From assembly GCA_965204785.1 (NCBI GenBank), contig OZ242015.1, positions 1,942,538-2,006,537 of the forward strand: DNA of 64,000 nucleotides. Direction: 5' to 3'. Position numbers and translations under genes: made by a program. Below the pieces are notes generated by a model. That model saw nothing but the letters and a program-made list of their open reading frames with translations, had not been told where the DNA came from and did not search any database. Positions 3,914-15,450 of the stretch are shown one piece after another. Each line of letters starts with the position of its first letter. Position 1 is the first letter of the stretch. The DNA is from Alphaproteobacteria bacterium (GTDB taxonomy: Bacteria; Pseudomonadota; Alphaproteobacteria; SP197).

Positions 3914-5524
3914 ATGCCCAAGGGAATGATCACAGGTCCCCAGCCGGATGCCGTCGAAGCCGGGGCGGAGGTGTTGCGGGCGGGCGGCAATGCGGTCGAT
4001 GCGGCACTGGCCTGCGCCTTCGTCCAGACCGTGGTCGATCCCATGATGTGCGGCATCGCCGGTTTCGGCGCCATGCATGTGCTGCTGCCGGACAAAGGCG
4101 TCCACGAGATCATCGACTTTCATGGCTGCGTGCCCGCCGCCGCTACGCCCGACATGTGGAAAGACCTGATCCTGGGCGAAACCGAGGACGGCTTCGGCTT
4201 CATCCTGAAGGGTGCGGTCAACGATCTGGGCTATCAGGCGATCACGACGCCGGGAACCCTGAAGGCCTTCGCCCAGGCCAGCGAGCGCTACGGCAGCATG
4301 CCGTGGGGCGATCTTCTGGAACGGGCCATTCACTATGCACGCGATGGATATGTGCTGACGCCCGGGGTGCACGGCTACTGGACCGCACCGGATTCGCCGG
4401 GCCGGGTGCGCGTGCTGGACCGCCTGGGCTATTCCGCCGAGGGGCGCGCCGTCTACTTCAATGAAGACGGCAGCGTGCGCCAGATAGGCGAGACGATCCG
4501 CAATCCCGGCATGGCCTCATCGCTGGAACAGATCGCGGGAGAAGGACCGGACGTCTTCTATGCCGGCGCGATCGCCGAGAAGATCGATGCCGACATGAAG
4601 GCAGGCGGCGGCCTGCTCTCGGCCCGCGATCTCGCCCACTACGAAACCCGGACCGATGCGCCGCTGTGGGGCAGCTATCGCGGCCTGACGTTCTCGACCA
4701 ACCGGCCGCCCGGCGGCGGGATCATGCTGATCGAGATGCTGAACATCCTGGAGAACTTCGATCTGGCGGCCATGGGGCACAACACGTCCGACTACATCCG
4801 CACGGTTTCCGAAGCCATGAAGATCGCCACCGCCGACAAGGACGCGCATGTCGGCGATCCCCGTTTTGTCGACGTGCCGCTCGACCGGCTGATGGACAAG
4901 GCCTATGCCGTCGGCCACGCCGAGGCGATCGCACGCGGCGAGAAGGCCCATGTCAAGCGCCTGGGCGGGATCGAATCACCCGGGACCACCCATGTCGTCA
5001 CCGCCGACAGTCAGGGCAACATCGTCACCATGACCCACACGCTGGGCATGATGTCGGGTGTCATCACCGATGGGCTCGGCTTCATGTACAACGGCGCGAT
5101 GGCGGTCTTCGATCCCCGTCCGGGCAGGGCGGGCTCGCTGGCGCCGGGCAAATCGCGCTTCAGTTCGCTCTGCCCCACCATCGTCTTCGACGGCGAACGA
5201 CCCATCCTGGCGCTCGGCGCTCCCGGCGGCACCCAGATCGCGATGGGCGTGCTGCAGGTCATGATGAATGTCATCGATTTCGGCATGACGCCCCAGGAAG
5301 CCATCCTGGCGCCGCGTTTCTCTGCGACCAGCGATGCCATAACGGTCACCGCCCGCATCCCGCGCTATCTCTGCGCCGAGCTGGAAGAGAAGGGTTATAC
5401 CGTCCAGCGCAGCATCTACAGCTATGCCATCGCCTCGGTTCACGCGATCGGCTTCGACGCGGCAGGCAATCCCAGCGGCGGCGCCGACATTCCCTATGGC
5501 GACGGCATGGCGTTGGCCGTCTAG
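3914..5524 (+). CDS. ggt: Gamma-glutamyltranspeptidase.
   Basis: GGT family conservation throughout; catalytic Thr segment 'SPGTTHVVTADSQGNIVTMTHTLG'. Confidence 0.9.
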   Translation: MPKGMITGPQPDAVEAGAEVLRAGGNAVDAALACAFVQTVVDPMMCGIAGFGAMHVLLPDKGVHEIIDFHGCVPAAATPDMWKDLILGETEDGFGFILKGAVNDLGYQAITTPGTLKAFAQASERYGSMPWGDLLERAIHYARDGYVLTPGVHGYWTAPDSPGRVRVLDRLGYSAEGRAVYFNEDGSVRQIGETIRNPGMASSLEQIAGEGPDVFYAGAIAEKIDADMKAGGGLLSARDLAHYETRTDAPLWGSYRGLTFSTNRPPGGGIMLIEMLNILENFDLAAMGHNTSDYIRTVSEAMKIATADKDAHVGDPRFVDVPLDRLMDKAYAVGHAEAIARGEKAHVKRLGGIESPGTTHVVTADSQGNIVTMTHTLGMMSGVITDGLGFMYNGAMAVFDPRPGRAGSLAPGKSRFSSLCPTIVFDGERPILALGAPGGTQIAMGVLQVMMNVIDFGMTPQEAILAPRFSATSDAITVTARIPRYLCAELEEKGYTVQRSIYSYAIASVHAIGFDAAGNPSGGADIPYGDGMALAV

Positions 5525-5841
5525 AGCATCGTCACCGCGACAGGCGGATGTGGCCGGCTCCCCGCACGATCGCGCACAGCAGATCGAGGGCAACATCCAG
5601 CACCGTCGATCCGACGTTGAACCGCAGGCCCGAGTTGGCGGCGTCCCCGAACGCCACGGCATGGTCGGCACGAAATTCGGGTCCCCAATCAGAATCAGCG
5701 GACGCGGTTTGGGTACGCTCATCCAGTGCGACCGGATTCAGACCGACCCTGGCAACAGCCGGACCCGGCTTCTCGTCGTGTTGCCGGTTCTCCGTCATGC
5801 CGTCAAAGATGAGACGCATGACCTGGTCAAGAAATTCCCAG

Positions 5842-5879
5842 CCCTTCACTACTTCATGGCGGCCGCCGTGAAGTAGTGA
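5842..5879. promoter_or_regulatory. 38-bp near-perfect palindrome (13-bp arms CTTCACTACTTCA/TGAAGTAGTGAAG around palindromic GGCGGCCGCC) between ggt and the acyl-CoA dehydrogenase gene. Terminator-like hairpin or operator.
   Basis: Read directly; no U-tract follows. Confidence 0.4.
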
Positions 5880-6146
5880 AGGCGCATCGCCCTGCTCTGA
5901 TCCGGTGAGGCGCGATAGATCGAACCGGCCAGAAAGTCTGTGGGATACGGGCAGGGTGGACCGCAGGGCAGACCGGGAAAAGCCGCGGTGCGCACGGAAT
6001 CGATCTCGAAGCAGCACTGTTCATCGATCAGAAGACATCAACGGTTTTCACGCAGGCAACCCTGCGGGTATGTCGAAACCTCATTTCCCGGCCTGAGGGG
6101 CGACAGGGCCGGGCCAGCGCGGCTATGGTCGGCTCGGGAGGACGGT

Positions 6147-7322: not shown

Positions 7323-8180
7323 TGACACTGCCGCTGGGGGGCTTCCGGTGGTCGCTATCGAGCAGGCCGTCGTGGGCCGGTCTGCACCTGCAGATCGACC
7401 GACACGGGCATGCGCGTGATCAGGATCGAGTGCGCAGAAGGCGACTTCGCGCGGAGCTGCGACAGCGTCGTGGAGGGCGAGAGCGCCTGTTTCGTCTGGC
7501 TCAACCGTGGCAAGGAGTCCGTGACGCTGGATCTGAAGTCGCCGACCGACCGCGATCTGGTGCCAGCCGTGATGAAGCGCTCCGACGTGCTGGTCGAAAA
7601 CCTGAAACCGGGATCGCTGAAACCGCGGGGGTCGCATGGGCCAACTAACAACGGCGTCGACGGCTTGTCCGGCCATGCCGATCTCAGGCAGATGGCCGTG
7701 GGAACGCTCCACGGCTCCGCGAGACTTTTCCACACCGGCCGCACGCCACGACGGCGCACACCGGCCCGGCCGCGGCGCAATCGGAGGCGCTGGCCTGGCT
7801 GTTCCTTGCAGTGTGCCGCCGGAGCCACCGTTTCGGACGGCATCCTGACCCTGGAAGGGGTGAACCCGGTAACCCTGGCCTTCACGAACCGCCCGCAGCG
7901 GATGGTCACGCACGTCGATACGCAGGCCTTTGCCGAGACGGTCTGGAGCGAAGGCGAGAACAGTTTCGCCGCCGGTCCTCCCAACGCGGTGATCGTTTAC
8001 CGCGAGGACTGCGAAACGAAATCGGCAGTGGTGGGACCTGCCGAACTGAGGATGGCCCAAGGCGGCATCCTGACCTGTGCGGTCAGCGTGTTCGACGGCG
8101 TTCTTCCTCCTGCCATGAAGCAGCCCGGGATCATCATCGGCAACACCGGGGGGCGATGGTGGAGGCGGCGCGGCGGGTGA
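7322..8180 (+). pseudogene. CoA-transferase family III (CaiB/BaiF-like) gene. ATG overlaps the ACAD stop; frameshift near 7400-7410 at a GGG run; distal part unrecognisable.
   Basis: Frame A 'MTLPLGGFRWSLSSRPSWAGLHLQIDRHG' resembles 'GIRVLDLSRVLAGP..LLADLGAEVIKIE'. It continues in frame B 'RVIRIECAEGD...ESACFVWLNRGKESVTLDLKSPTDRDLVPAVMKRSDVLVENLKPGSLKPRG', the family III N-terminal signature. Confidence 0.5.
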
Positions 8181-8222
8181 CCGGCGCTTTCTCACGACGG
8201 CCGGGACGCAGGTCCTCCATCG

Positions 8223-8825
8223 TCAGCCGACAGTCCAGTGGCCGAGCACCTCGTCAGTCGTGCCAATCTCGATCTGGTCTTCGAAGCATCGGTAGATATG
8301 GGCGAGCGTCGCCTCGTGCGAGGCCGGGTTCGAGCCGTGGCAGGCATCGCTCACCACGATCACGCGGTAGCCCCGGTCCATGGCGGTCATGACCGTGCCC
8401 AGCACGCAGACATTGGTCTCCACGCCCGTGCAGATCACCGTGGAGCAGTCGAGTTCGTCAATGATGGCGCGGAACCCGGGGCTTTCGAACGCCGAATAGG
8501 TCGGTTTGCTGGCGACACGCGCGGGCGGTACGAAGCCCTTCAGCTCATCCATGAGCTCGATCACGGCGGGATCCATCACGGCCGTCGTCACGCTCTGCCA
8601 GCGCCGGTAGTAGACCTTCCAGTGACCCAGCGCATCCTCCGCATGCTCCGGCGTCGTGAACTGGGTGAACACCGTGCGCGCGGGCGCATGTTCGGTCAGG
8701 CGCAGGATGTTGGGCAGGATTTCAGGAATGGACGGCGTGTGCCAGTCGGTCCTGTCGGCAAACAGTCGCTGCATATCGACGCAGACATGGACGGCATCGG
8801 GGCCGATGGGCTGGATTTCCTGCAT
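8223..8825 (-). CDS. Isochorismatase-family cysteine hydrolase (amidase-type).
   Basis: 'CTGVETNVCVLGTVMTAMDRGYRVIVVSDACHG' is the catalytic-Cys region of isochorismatase-like hydrolases. Confidence 0.8.
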   Translation of the reverse strand: MQEIQPIGPDAVHVCVDMQRLFADRTDWHTPSIPEILPNILRLTEHAPARTVFTQFTTPEHAEDALGHWKVYYRRWQSVTTAVMDPAVIELMDELKGFVPPARVASKPTYSAFESPGFRAIIDELDCSTVICTGVETNVCVLGTVMTAMDRGYRVIVVSDACHGSNPASHEATLAHIYRCFEDQIEIGTTDEVLGHWTVG

Positions 8826-12820: not shown

Positions 12821-13606
12821 ATGACAAACCAGATGGCGGAACTGAGCTGGACGGGGCTGGAGGAACGCATCGCGGGTGGCGCGGTCGTGCTGCTCCCGGT
12901 CGGCGCGAACGAAAGCCACGGACCCCACCTGCCGTTGGGCACCGACCGCATCTGTGCCTGCGGTTTCGCCAAGGAGGTCGCCGGACGCATCGATGCCGTC
13001 ATTGCACCGGAAATCCCCTGGGGCTTCCGTTCCCAGATCAGGACGGGCGGCGGCAGCCACTGGGTAGGCAACATCGGGCTTGATGCCGAGGTTCTGGTCG
13101 GTCTGGTGCGCGCGACGGTCCGCGAGGTGGCGATCAAGGGCATGACGAAGATCGCCATCGTCAACGGCCATTACGAGAACGTCTGGTTTATCACCGAAGG
13201 CTGCGAGCTGGCCGTGCGCGATCTCAATGCGCAGCCCGGCGGCGAGCTCGTCATCCAGACTGCCTCCTGGTGGGACATGGTGGGCGACGACGATCTCTCG
13301 GCCATCTTCCCCAACCCGCCCGAAAGCATCGAATACGAACACGGCGCGCTGCTGGAAACCTCGATCATGATGGCGATGCGCCCGGACCTCGTCGCCACCG
13401 ACAGGTTCCCCCGGCACGGCTTCAAGGTGTTCCCGCCCTACGACGTGTTTCCGCAGGACCCGGCACGCGCCAACGAGACCGGCTCGCTTGCCACCTCCAA
13501 CGGCGCCAACGCGGAAGCGGGCGCGCAACTCATTGCCCTGATCGCCGACCGCATGGCCGAACACATCCGCACCGAACTCAACGCCGACCCGGCCCGTGGC
13601 GCTTGA
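12821..13606 (+). CDS. Creatininase-family amidohydrolase (creatinine amidohydrolase-like). An alternative ATG lies at 12794.
   Basis: 'LLPVGANESHGPHLPLGTDRI' matches the creatininase metal-binding motif (VGSxEQHGPHLPLxTD). Confidence 0.8.
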   Translation: MTNQMAELSWTGLEERIAGGAVVLLPVGANESHGPHLPLGTDRICACGFAKEVAGRIDAVIAPEIPWGFRSQIRTGGGSHWVGNIGLDAEVLVGLVRATVREVAIKGMTKIAIVNGHYENVWFITEGCELAVRDLNAQPGGELVIQTASWWDMVGDDDLSAIFPNPPESIEYEHGALLETSIMMAMRPDLVATDRFPRHGFKVFPPYDVFPQDPARANETGSLATSNGANAEAGAQLIALIADRMAEHIRTELNADPARGA

Positions 13607-13855
13607 GGGTCTGCATGGCGTTGTCACCGGCACGGCATCCGAACCTGGGCGTGGCACACGGTCCGGTCGATATCGGCGCGACCCCGCGAGCGCACGTGCC
13701 ATGGTGGCCGACGTCGTCCGTTTACCTGCCCGACGACAGCGGCCGCTGGATCAGCGGCACCTCCCTCAACGTGACGGGCGGGCTGTGGCGGGGGCAACCG
13801 GGACTCCCAAAAATTCGGGAATTATATACGATCGTGCCCAAGATGGAGGTTTGAA

Positions 13856-13990
13856 ATGGCGCAGAAAGCACCCGGAAAATCGCACCGCAAGGGCATAAGT
13901 CCGAAGAAACTGTTTCAAATGTTCCCCGACGACGCAATCTCTGAGAATCCGATTGCACCTGACGGATTGCCCAGCGGAGCGCGGTCATGA
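13856..13990 (+). pseudogene. 44-aa remnant of an IS1595-family transposase N-terminus (Zn_Tnp_IS1595-like); ATGA overlap with the downstream methyltransferase start.
   Basis: 'MAQKAPGKSHRKGISPKKLFQMFPDDAI...' resembles the 'APGK.YRKGISL.ELF.MFPD' N-termini of IS1595-family transposases (from memory). Strong RBS GGAGG 7 nt upstream. Confidence 0.4.
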
Positions 13991-14622
13991 GCCACAACGA
14001 CGCCGCAACCGGTCTATCCAGATTTCTCGGTTCTCAAAAGTTCTCAACGGTCATGGCCGATCCGCCATGGCGCTTTACCAACCGAACCGGGAAGATGGCA
14101 CCAGAGCACAAGCGGCTTGCCAGATACCCGACCATGACGCTTGAAGACATTTGCGCCCTTCCAGTCGCCGACTTCATGGAAGATCGTGCGCATTGTTATC
14201 TTTGGGTACCGAATGCGCTTCTTCCCGAAGGGTTGCGGGTCATGTCCGAATGGGGCTTCACATACAAATCAAACATCATTTGGCACAAGATAAGGAAAGA
14301 TGGCGGATCGGACGGGAGGGGCGTCGGGTTCTATTTCCGCAACGTCACGGAAGTTCTTCTGTTCGGAATACGCGGCAAGAATGTCAGAACGCTTCAACCG
14401 GGGCGGCGGCAGATCAACCTGTTTGGGACGCGAAAGCGGGAACATTCTCGCAAGCCCGACGAACAATATGACATCATCGAGAGTTGCAGTTGGGGGCCAT
14501 ATCTGGAACTGTTCGGGCGTGGTCGCCGGGACAACTGGACGGTCTGGGGAAACCAGGCGTCCGACGATTACAAACCAACCTGGGACACGTACAAGTACAA
14601 TTCTGCGGTGGCGGCAGAATGA
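13987..14622 (+). CDS. MT-A70 family DNA methyltransferase (N6-adenine/N4-cytosine), the M subunit of a type II R-M pair.
   Basis: 'VMADPPWRF' DPPW catalytic motif near the N-terminus; 'GFYFRNVTEVLLFG' distal. Confidence 0.8.
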   Translation: MSHNDAATGLSRFLGSQKFSTVMADPPWRFTNRTGKMAPEHKRLARYPTMTLEDICALPVADFMEDRAHCYLWVPNALLPEGLRVMSEWGFTYKSNIIWHKIRKDGGSDGRGVGFYFRNVTEVLLFGIRGKNVRTLQPGRRQINLFGTRKREHSRKPDEQYDIIESCSWGPYLELFGRGRRDNWTVWGNQASDDYKPTWDTYKYNSAVAAE

Positions 14623-14628
14623 ACGCGC

Positions 14629-15327
14629 ATGTCTGACAGTGAGATAAATCTGTTTTCTGAAAACATCAAGCGGAAGTTTGAGATTCACAGCTACCGGAAC
14701 GCGGCGTCCATTCTGGCCAACAGCTTTCCTAACCGGTTCTCGCATGTGGTTGGCGCCTTGGAGAGGTTCGAGATCACCACGGAGATGATCAGGCGGCCCG
14801 GCGGCAGCAAAGGCGAAATCGCCCGATACGTGGACACGCTGTTCCCGTCACCAAATTGGATTGAAACCCGGATTTCCGCCGATCTGATGGTTCGACTCGA
14901 ACATGCGAAGCAAAGCGGACACATCCTTCATGAATATGTCAGAAAAGGGTTTTTGGATGGTCACAGGATAGATTTCGTTTCTGGAAAAGTCGCGCTTGAT
15001 CTAGAGTGGAACAGCAAAGATCAAACATACGATCGGGACTTGTATGCGTTTTCGGCCTTCTACGACGCTGGCGCAATAGACGTTGGAATCATACTGACAC
15101 GTGGTTCATCCTTGGATAATGCGTTCTTTCAGAGTCTCGGGAAGGTTCTAAACAAAGACGGAACCGAAGGCACCGAAGAAGTGTACAAGAAGTTTGGGGC
15201 ATCAACCACATGGATGGGGAAATTGCTTTACAGGCTTGAGGCCGGGCGCAACGGCGGTTGCCCTGTGCTGGCGATTGGAATCACACCTGAGTGTATTGGA
15301 GGAAAAAATGGAAAAACGGAAATCTGA
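14629..15327 (+). CDS. Putative type II restriction endonuclease, BamHI/BglII/BstYI fold.
   Basis: 'RIDFVSGKVALDLEWNSKD...AIDVGIILTRG' parallels the BglII 'IDFGKRDTLVEVQFSN...VAIIITKG' and BamHI D...ExE active-site architecture (from memory; inference). It sits immediately 3' of the MTase. Confidence 0.5.
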   Translation: MSDSEINLFSENIKRKFEIHSYRNAASILANSFPNRFSHVVGALERFEITTEMIRRPGGSKGEIARYVDTLFPSPNWIETRISADLMVRLEHAKQSGHILHEYVRKGFLDGHRIDFVSGKVALDLEWNSKDQTYDRDLYAFSAFYDAGAIDVGIILTRGSSLDNAFFQSLGKVLNKDGTEGTEEVYKKFGASTTWMGKLLYRLEAGRNGGCPVLAIGITPECIGGKNGKTEI

Positions 15328-15417
15328 TTATTACACGAAAGTCACGGACCGGGGATACCAGCCCAACAAGAGAGTCCATACGATTGGGCACTATCGTATG
15401 TAATTCCCGAATTCTTC

Positions 15418-15450
15418 CCGTCATGGCCCGGCTTGACCGGGCCATGACGG
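15418..15450. terminator. Perfect 14-bp-stem hairpin (CCGTCATGGCCCGG-cttga-CCGGGCCATGACGG) immediately outside the right TIR, between convergent genes. No U-tract.
   Basis: Read directly. Confidence 0.4.

Follow-up and report, generated by a model that had tools for sequence, protein, structure and literature searches.

The locus lies in a 64-kb stretch of alphaproteobacterial DNA (hereafter, the window) and consists of a low-GC element at 13817-15408 (1,592 bp), bounded on both sides by 25-bp terminal inverted repeats. On the plus strand it holds, in order, a 44-aa mini-ORF (13856..13990), a 211-aa MT-A70 family DNA N6-adenine methyltransferase (13987..14622, hereafter M), a 232-aa BglII/BstYI-family type II restriction endonuclease (14629..15327, hereafter R) and a truncated fourth ORF of 31 codons, orf4 (15308..15403), which was absent from the earlier note, a first reading of this DNA from its letters alone. 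GC content is 0.46-0.57 along the element and 0.60-0.69 in the flanks, which bears out the AT-richer interior described there; overall, it averages 0.523 in the element and 0.636 in the remainder of the window, a deficit of 11 points relative to the host.

The assignment of the two large genes stood up well. M covers the full MT-A70 profile (Pfam E 6e-28), with the DPPW motif at residues 25-28, and matches MT-A70 chains of the PDB at E 2e-18; its start overlaps the end of the 44-aa ORF by ATGA, also as first described. R had been credited with a BamHI/BglII-like core, and it covers the Endonuc-BglII profile (PF09195) in full at E 8.9e-40. A phmmer search of R against the PDB gave no matches; a profile search gave a match to BstYI (1SDO), and the structure prediction proposed in the earlier note yielded an AF2 model (pLDDT 84) whose top Foldseek matches are BstYI (E 1e-6, TM 0.52-0.65). 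Residues D115, E126 and N128 are invariant in 21-30 homologues and align to the D...E-V-Q motif of BstYI. The locus thus encodes a PD-(D/E)XK endonuclease of a known family and, next to it, a methyltransferase with catalytic and SAM-binding motifs, as expected by sequence of a type II restriction-modification (R-M) system. With dN/dS values of 0.04-0.05 for M and 0.06-0.12 for R, both genes are intact and, judged by their codons, evolving under purifying selection. Each protein was seen on one contig only, the host's 3.75-Mb contig in a clustered protein collection; look-ups of the exact sequences of M, R, the oxidoreductase and the 44-aa ORF returned no recorded contig. The pairing of M with R persists across more than 100 loci, even where endonuclease identity has fallen to 40%. 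Since BstYI, the structural relative of R, cuts RGATCY, and since a sister element has a Dam-type methyltransferase, R probably recognises a site with a GATC core whose cleavage would be blocked by adenine methylation. Palindrome counts in the window showed no clear avoidance of GATC-core hexamers and were of no help in predicting the recognition site. With the cassette as query, blastn matched plasmids only at distant MT-A70 genes.

The 30-bp inverted repeats first reported for this locus were confirmed, with 13812-13841 matching the opposite strand of 15384-15413 at 28/30 positions (2 mismatches). A repeat finder lengthened them to 33 nt at 91% identity (13809-13841 / 15384-15416). That they might be a common genomic repeat, which had been named as a point against the reading, is not what we found: no further match with up to 3 mismatches occurs in the 64-kb window, and 0 matches are expected by chance (100 shuffles). 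Comparison with 16 full-length relatives places the true ends, GGG...CCC, at 13817 and 15408. The terminal repeat proper is therefore 25 bp long, with the left arm (IRL, 13817..13841, plus strand) reading GGGAATTATATACGATCGTGCCCAA and the right arm (IRR, 15384..15408) reading GGGAATTACATACGATAGTGCCCAA on the minus strand. By the same comparison the outer AATTC belongs to flanking DNA, on the left within AAAAATTC (13809..13816), where an 8-bp target duplication would be expected, and on the right within GAATTCTT (15409..15416), and we rejected it as part of the terminal repeat. The 25-bp termini match the IRL and IRR of L001-L007, L088-L096 and L177, which marks the element as an IS1595-family derivative, and the ends GGGAATTAT fit ggnnatTAT, the terminal consensus of the ISNwi1 group in ISfinder.

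The proposal that the repeats are IS1595-type ends, and that full-length copies with the same ends would be found among relatives, was borne out by the 16 transposase-bearing copies. The closest homologues of R (82-91% identity) sit in elements of 2.6-2.8 kb with the same ends, in the gene order tnp (324-325 aa, IS1595 family)-M-R-orf4: one at 91% (P0001), one at 88% (P0002), present at 9 loci in a single assembly, and one at 84% in 6 loci (P0005). Two such full-length elements span 2316-5109 of L089 and 3303-5879 of L004. Their transposases, with Zn ribbon and DDE domain, score 176-184 bits against the IS1595-family model NF033547 (cut-off 75), and the M start overlaps the transposase stop by ATGA. 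Terminal repeats GGG(G/A)ATTATATACGATnGTGCCC flank these elements, and their promoter, TTGACn-17/18-TGATTCAAY, lies between two ...GTGCCCAA repeats. The parent copies are flanked by 8-bp duplications where checked. These are AT-rich (CAACGTAA, TTCTATTT, TTTTTTTA, AATGTTTT, ATCGAAAA and TTTACTTT/TTTACCTT), perfect at five insertions (L004, L007, L088, L089 and L091) and matching at 7/8 positions in L001; at two further target sites the two copies of the duplication lie on different loci. As in transporter IS, the transposase and passenger genes of the parents lie together within one pair of terminal repeats and transpose as a unit, to judge by nine contexts in assembly ERZ25067590 and six loci with four target sites in ERZ18545485. 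The elements have about 52% GC, against 59-64% in their hosts. In L181/L182 a Dam-type methyltransferase takes the place of the MT-A70 protein. Related transposases are very abundant in Alphaproteobacteria, in clusters of up to 202 member sequences. For M-R homologues at 66-76% identity, screening of the flanks revealed neither a transposase nor IS ends. An 18-nt repeat around one locus (L103) looks like a REP-type repeat.

Alignment with the full-length relatives maps three internal deletions in the window copy. The first, of ~45-65 bp directly behind IRL, took the conserved promoter and joined IRL to the inner subterminal repeat; a promoter scan of the window copy returned one weak site, no more than expected by chance. 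The second removed 283 codons of tnp in frame (junction ~13944-13949), and the third most of orf4 (53-57 aa in the relatives; junction ~15370/15371). The 44-aa ORF had been read as a transposase N-terminus. This is correct for its first part, which aligns with transposase residues 1-29 (74% identity, E 2e-12), but incomplete, as residues 1-29/30 are joined in frame to the last 12 of the protein (residues 313-324, 11/12 identical, E 1e-5). As the earlier note had held, no catalytic domain is left: of the Zn ribbon and DDE domain that characterise an autonomous IS1595 element (PF12760 and PF12762, or NF033547), the window copy retains only what lies in residues 1-29 and 313-324. No other transposase homologue occurs in the 64-kb window. 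The mini-ORF has no Pfam match, gave no tblastn matches in the PLSDB plasmids, and matches nothing else in a collection of about 15 billion proteins, being seen on one contig only. It retains its own Shine-Dalgarno sequence (GGAGG), the one serving M (GGAG), and the ATGA overlap. Other stages of decay are found elsewhere: a transposase frameshift in L001, a transposase in fragments in L177, a mere trace of the tnp 5′ end in L178-180 and an endonuclease fragment in L183.

The element had been placed between a creatininase and an oxidoreductase gene. The right neighbour is indeed the oxidoreductase gene, but the left one is a pseudogene rather than the creatininase gene: blastn identified N-terminal, middle and C-terminal pieces of an SDR gene at 13596..13800 on the plus strand, outside the element and with the stop codon lost. 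This SDR gene is intact in three syntenic relatives (L008, L009 and L010), which have the order creatininase-SDR-oxidoreductase without the insert. An arrangement conserved at equal GC content, named as a sign against insertion, is not observed in these three genomes, which lack the insert, and the insert lies 11 points below its host. The comparison with relatives for an empty site succeeded only in part: relatives without the insert were found, but the exact empty site was not recovered among those available (about 82-84% nucleotide identity), and there is no clean 8-bp duplication at the window copy, where AAAAATTC and GAATTCTT agree at 3/8 positions. In L008, ~10 bp separate the SDR and oxidoreductase stop codons; in L009 and L010 they are ~185-195 bp apart, with unrelated palindromic repeats in between. 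Because this spacer differs completely among the available relatives, we infer the insertion point. An imperfect 6-bp repeat abuts both ends (AAATTC as the last 6 nt on the left, GAATTC as the first 6 on the right, 5/6 identical). The perfect 14-bp hairpin reported outside the right repeat is present at 15418-15431 / 15437-15450 (15418..15450, minus strand). With its flanks it folds at -42 kcal/mol (z -5.8), and it is unique in the window. We considered it as part of the element and rejected this, since it lies outside the ends set by the relatives, is absent from them, and follows the oxidoreductase stop codon by 30 nt. It is host DNA and probably the terminator stem of the oxidoreductase gene.

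Taken together, the evidence makes it very probable that the segment 13817-15408 arose by internal deletion from a transporter IS of the IS1595 family and is no longer autonomous; most likely it decayed in place. The earlier designation as a mobile insertion cassette holds for its structure, with IS-type ends, unrelated passenger genes and no transposase, but not for the signs of mobility as a cassette (several copies, duplications, mobilisation in trans), as there is a single copy in the 64-kb window, no clean 8-bp duplication, and a 44-aa ORF that is unique. For these reasons, decay of an autonomous element in place is more likely than movement as a cassette. Transposition to this site in the present short form, driven in trans by a related transposase of the IS1595 family from another part of the genome, would agree with ends as well preserved as those of active copies (2 arm mismatches, compared with 2-4 in L004 and L089), with deletions that leave the ends, the two R-M genes and their ribosome-binding sites untouched, and with the abundance of related transposases in Alphaproteobacteria. 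We nevertheless regard it as unlikely: the fusion ORF occurs nowhere else in the protein collection, the window offers neither a second copy, nor a duplication, nor a transposase homologue, and three separate deletions, together with the parallel decay series elsewhere, fit slow erosion in place. None of the best 120 transposase homologues lies on the host's 3.75-Mb contig either, which is a weak argument in the same direction.

The missing duplication could in principle reflect homologous recombination between two former copies, leaving flanks that stem from different insertion sites. Chimeric flanks of this kind are seen among three target sites in ERZ18545485 (L002, L003, L005 and L006). 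However, the flanks of the window copy have the same order and orientation as in the element-free relatives (creatininase-SDR on the left, oxidoreductase on the right), so that no rearrangement beyond the short spacer is possible, and the AATTC present at each junction points to one target site that has suffered slight damage, making such an exchange very improbable. That the R-M pair is an old resident of the locus and the repeats a matter of chance or a regulatory palindrome, for which one could cite the missing duplication and the M-R homologues at 66-76% identity without transposase or terminal repeats, is effectively refuted by the repeat statistics (0 chance matches expected), by the homology of the 25-bp repeats to the ends of 16 transposase-bearing copies, by the transposase remnant between IRL and M, and by syntenic relatives that lack the insert, besides its low GC content relative to the host.

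The element so understood belongs to known kinds of mobile DNA, namely transporter IS, mobile insertion cassettes and transposon-like R-M units. Transporter IS (tIS) were described in the IS1595 family (Siguier, Gagnevin & Chandler 2009, summarised in PMC3129680 and PMC11891212). The parent elements resemble them in having a single Zn-ribbon/DDE transposase of the IS1595 family, short terminal repeats, 8-bp duplications and passenger genes downstream of tnp within the repeats. The tIS passengers listed in these two summaries are regulators, methyltransferases and resistance genes; a full type II R-M pair in which M is translationally coupled to tnp is not among them. The window copy differs further in having no transposase. 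Mobile insertion cassettes such as MIC231 of Bacillus cereus (De Palmenaer et al. 2004, cited in PMC3129680) share with the window copy IS-type repeats that bracket passengers without a transposase, so that mobilisation in trans is possible in principle. In contrast to MIC231, the window copy is single in the window, lacks a clean duplication and carries an obvious transposase remnant, so that it resembles a tIS in decay more than a cassette family that has become established. MIC231 is reportedly present in several copies that have target duplications, and mobilisation of MIC231 in trans is said to have been shown experimentally.

Transposon-like R-M units with inverted repeats and an 8-bp duplication were reported in X. 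oryzae and N. gonorrhoeae (Furuta, Abe & Kobayashi 2010, PMC2853133). As here, R-M genes lie within imperfect terminal repeats and have been added at a site that is empty elsewhere. In N. gonorrhoeae the unit also includes a transposase-like gene (COG3677) that seems to have been inactivated, and the genome has many copies of IS1016, a member of the IS1595 family. No autonomous parent was identified in that study, and its authors did not decide whether insertion is the work of the R-M proteins themselves, whereas in our case the parent is identified, with an intact transposase and in multiple copies. The R-M type also differs, being MT-A70 plus BglII/BstYI family here. With the type IIP endonucleases BstYI and BglII (PDB 1SDO, 1VRR and 2P0J), R shares the Pfam family PF09195, the predicted fold of BstYI and an aligned catalytic D...E-x-(Q/N) motif, but only 16-17% identity, and its partner is an MT-A70 protein (Dam-type in the sister element).

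On the preferred reading of decay in place, the element would have inserted, most likely at full length, into an A/T tract beside the terminator hairpin of the oxidoreductase gene, and then decayed where it stood. The R-M pair may have been retained for its value in defence, or because cells that lose it pay a price (post-segregational killing). Since the element's own promoter is deleted, M and R would depend for transcription either on read-through of the creatininase/SDR-pseudogene transcript that lies upstream or on a promoter inside the element, and translation of M would still be coupled to the 44-codon remnant ORF, both ribosome-binding sites having been kept. A further-reaching view, which we offer tentatively as possible though doubtful, is that the parent is an IS with an addiction module as cargo. 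The transposase would spread the R-M genes from site to site in a genome and from one genome to another (one assembly has at least 9 copies) and the R-M pair would penalise loss of the last copy, so that lineages would end with a transposase-less, selectively maintained R-M cassette. The remnant would then have been kept in frame because, as a coupling leader, it keeps methyltransferase synthesis ahead of that of the endonuclease. If true, this would provide a defined and experimentally tractable route from a selfish mobile R-M system to a fixed chromosomal defence pair.

How R-M systems move is often unclear, and many of those found in chromosomes have no visible vehicle. Here the vehicle is identified: a complete type II system travels in an IS1595-family element, which attains high copy number and swaps its methyltransferase module. 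Graded decay products link it to R-M pairs without a transposase and, eventually, without repeats, the window copy being an intermediate. Gene-centred annotation would give two defence genes and a hypothetical 44-aa protein, missing this history. The findings leave existing concepts unchanged and add a clean example both for the view of R-M systems as selfish mobile elements and for the annotation of IS derivatives. The insert in the window is a clear example of a known route by which defence genes spread and then become fixed in the chromosome.

The inverted repeat, both gene families and the AT-richness described in the earlier note were all recovered. Positions 13812-13841 are the reverse complement of 15384-15413 with two mismatches; the repeat grew to 33 nt at 91% with a repeat finder, and no further match at three or fewer mismatches was found in the 64-kb window, nor any in 100 shuffles. 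By comparison with relatives, the ends of the element were placed at 13817 and 15408 (1,592 bp). GC content is 0.46-0.57 within the insert versus 0.60-0.69 outside (0.523 over the whole element, 0.636 over the remaining window). The genes are a 44-aa ORF that represents a transposase remnant (13856-13990), an MT-A70 methyltransferase of 211 aa (M; 13987-14622, E 6e-28) overlapping it by ATGA, and a 232-aa endonuclease (R; 14629-15327) that covers the whole Endonuc-BglII profile (E 8.9e-40). Just inside the right terminal repeat (15377-15400), a small ATACGAT...ATCGTAT inverted repeat surrounds TGGGCACT; it is also found in the related locus L001 and is absent from another, L004.

Homologues of R number in the thousands, and we traced the closest ones to their contigs. 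P0005 (84% identity to R) occurs at six loci within one metagenome assembly, and P0002 (88%) at nine loci in another, with a different gene neighbourhood at each. At all these loci the gene ahead of M encodes a protein of 324-325 aa in which the domains Zn_ribbon_IS1595 and DDE_Tnp_IS1595 are present, and its stop overlaps the start of M by 4 nt; this transposase scores 176-184 bits against the IS1595-family model NF033547 of NCBIfam, for which the cut-off is 75. R is followed by orf4, a short conserved ORF (53-57 aa). The termini of these units are the same sequence as the window repeats (left GGGGATTATATACGATAGTGCCCAA and right GGGAATTATATACGATAGTGCCCAG in L004; GGGAATTATATACGATGGTGCCCG / GGGATTTATATACGATAGTGCCCA in the L089 type), and AT-rich 8-bp direct repeats border them: CAACGTAA in L004, TTCTATTT in L007, TTTTTTTA in L089, AATGTTTT in L091 and ATCGAAAA in L088, the 8-bp flanks of L001 being TTTACTTT / TTTACCTT. 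The shared ends, the transposase and the 8-bp repeats identify the parent as an IS1595-family element of 2.6-2.8 kb, with a complete R-M pair for its passenger, that is transposing now or was until recently.

Several features of these relatives are recorded here in their own right. In orf4 (L004 and L001, 5680-5850; L089, 4674-4835; L177, 4674-4844), which overlaps the R stop codon, the conserved sequence is M..RKSDYY.KVMDR.YQPNK.D.NKD..VPV.PERLAQAVMKGGA; it had no Pfam or NCBIfam match, and is perhaps a regulator. The flanks of L002, L003, L005 and L006 (assembly ERZ18545485) pair the 8-bp targets TATCAATT, TTCTATTT and TTTTCGAA chimerically, reflecting either recombination between element copies of strains that co-exist or an assembly that is ambiguous across the 2.6-kb repeat. 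L089 and L095 (flanks ~2308-2315 and ~5110-5117) occupy the same poly-A/T target within IS630-like (DDE_3) copies, in both orientations, suggesting that the element strongly prefers A/T runs and nests inside other IS. The transposase belongs to a very large clade, in which single clusters number 202, 177 and 91 sequences (hits include P0127, P0128, P0130 and P0165); a member of 506 aa may be a fusion protein.

Three internal deletions were mapped by aligning the window copy with L004 and with its closest relative, L001, to which its M and R genes are 88% identical at the nucleotide level. The first removed the stretch of ~45-65 bp that separates the terminal repeat from an inner ...GTGCCCAA repeat, so that the two GTGCCCAA repeats are directly joined; in L004, L089, L001 and L177 this segment holds a conserved promoter-like TTGACn-17/18-TGATTCAAY. 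The second took 283 codons out of the transposase gene in frame, with its junction at ~13944-13949. Two parts of the transposase are recognisable in the 44-aa ORF, residues 3-29 (74% identity, E 2e-12) and 313-324 (11/12 identical, E 1e-5), and the remnant retains its own ribosome-binding site and start codon, the ATGA overlap with M, and the M ribosome-binding site (GGAG) 7 nt ahead of the ATG. The third reduced orf4 to 31 codons (15308-15403; junction ~15370/15371). No transposase homologue was found elsewhere in the 64-kb window.

The locus was also compared in the closest relatives identified by way of the oxidoreductase, three MAGs of uncultured alphaproteobacteria (L008 and L009, 91% aa identity; L010, 87%). 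In all three, the DNA on either side is collinear with that of the window (creatininase-SDR-oxidoreductase), and neither R-M genes nor IS ends were found at the syntenic locus in any of them; judged from this synteny, the window segment is an insertion. The short-chain dehydrogenase (SDR) gene, intact in the relatives (~240 aa), is a remnant at 13596-13800, in three short pieces with two internal deletions and its stop codon lost. The SDR-oxidoreductase stop-codon spacer differs entirely in each relative, so no exact empty site is recoverable. In L009 (~8052-8235) and L010 (~5704-5898), unrelated long palindromic (REP-like) sequences fill the spacer after the oxidoreductase gene, which marks it as a hotspot for small insertions. 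The perfect 14-bp hairpin of the earlier note is present at 15418-15450, outside the element ends, which rules it out as part of the element. On the minus strand it follows the stop codon of the oxidoreductase gene by 30 nt; it is very stable (z -5.8) and unique in the window, and we read it as the terminator stem of that gene. The IS would have landed in the A/T tract adjoining it, which fits the AT-rich targets seen at other loci.

No 8-bp duplication borders the window copy: its flanks AAAAATTC and GAATTCTT agree at 3/8 positions, and only AAATTC/GAATTC (5/6) abuts both ends. We favour the arrival of an autonomous element that then eroded where it had inserted, because the short form occurs on a single contig and a decay series exists elsewhere. 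A single contig of 3.75 Mb accounts for every occurrence of the 44-aa ORF, of M and of R; a collection of about 15 billion proteins gave no second match to the 44-aa ORF and, as weak evidence, the top 120 transposase homologues include none attributed to that contig. Other lineages have decayed independently, and the other stages they show include a frameshifted transposase gene (L001), a transposase split in three fragments with a shortened M (L177), a transposase trace of only 20 nt without repeats (L178-L180) and a fragment of R (L183). The earlier note's mobile cassette stands as regards IS ends and passenger genes without a transposase; its movement in short form, mobilised in trans, is a minority alternative, to which ends as intact as those of active copies lend support, but the single-contig occurrence and the parallel decay point to erosion in place. 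Recombination between two element copies, which would have removed the duplication, is unlikely since both flanks retain the ancestral order.

The R-M pair looks functional from its sequence: both ORFs are full length, and in comparisons with three relatives dN/dS was 0.04-0.05 (M) and 0.06-0.12 (R). M matches MT-A70 chains in the PDB (E 2e-18). The proposed BamHI/BglII-like nature of R was borne out by a profile of 21 homologues that matches BstYI (1SDO, E 8e-4), the invariant D115...E126-x-N128 aligning to its D...E-V-Q segment, and by an AlphaFold2 model (pLDDT 84, pTM 0.81) whose only significant PDB matches were three BstYI structures (E 1e-6 to 6e-5, TM 0.52-0.65). BstYI recognises RGATCY and BglII AGATCT. 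A sister element (L181 967-3320, L182 1088-3441) has the same backbone (transposase, R at 82% identity, orf4), a Dam-type methyltransferase (PF05869) instead of MT-A70, and different, duplicated end sequences (GGGAATTATATCCCAAAG). The kinship of R to BstYI/BglII and this Dam-type enzyme beside an 82%-identical R point to a probable GATC-core target blocked by adenine methylation; counts of GATC-core hexamers in the window were uninformative on specificity.

The MT-A70/BglII-family pairing is old and widespread: over 100 loci have it, with R identity as low as 40% and 30 IMG/VR viral contigs among them, and the genes are ordered M-R, R-M or convergent. On the 30 predicted viral/prophage contigs (L184-L213) the pair has 40-76% identity, and none carries an IS1595 transposase. 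Around one M-R homologue without transposase (L103), an 18-nt inverted repeat (TGGTGGAGGGGCACGCGC; 2851-2868 and 4609-4626) looks like a REP-type context rather than transposon ends. The IS1595 transposase is linked only to the R clade at ≥82% identity, and homologues at 66-76% have neither transposase nor IS ends, which indicates that the IS captured the pair once, fairly recently.

Both IS with passenger genes (tIS; Siguier et al, 2009) and transposase-less cassettes with IS ends (MICs) are established categories (PMC3129680, PMC11891212), and the parent, with transposase and R-M passenger in one IS, matches the tIS sense given there. Furuta et al (2010; PMC2853133) described R-M units that lie between imperfect inverted repeats and show 8-bp duplications; in N. 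gonorrhoeae, one such unit contains a degenerate transposase-like gene. Which activity mobilises the units was left open by these authors. No account of the present element was found in the literature searched, ISfinder and REBASE lying outside the search. The element belongs to these known categories, and what is added to them is an identified autonomous parent.
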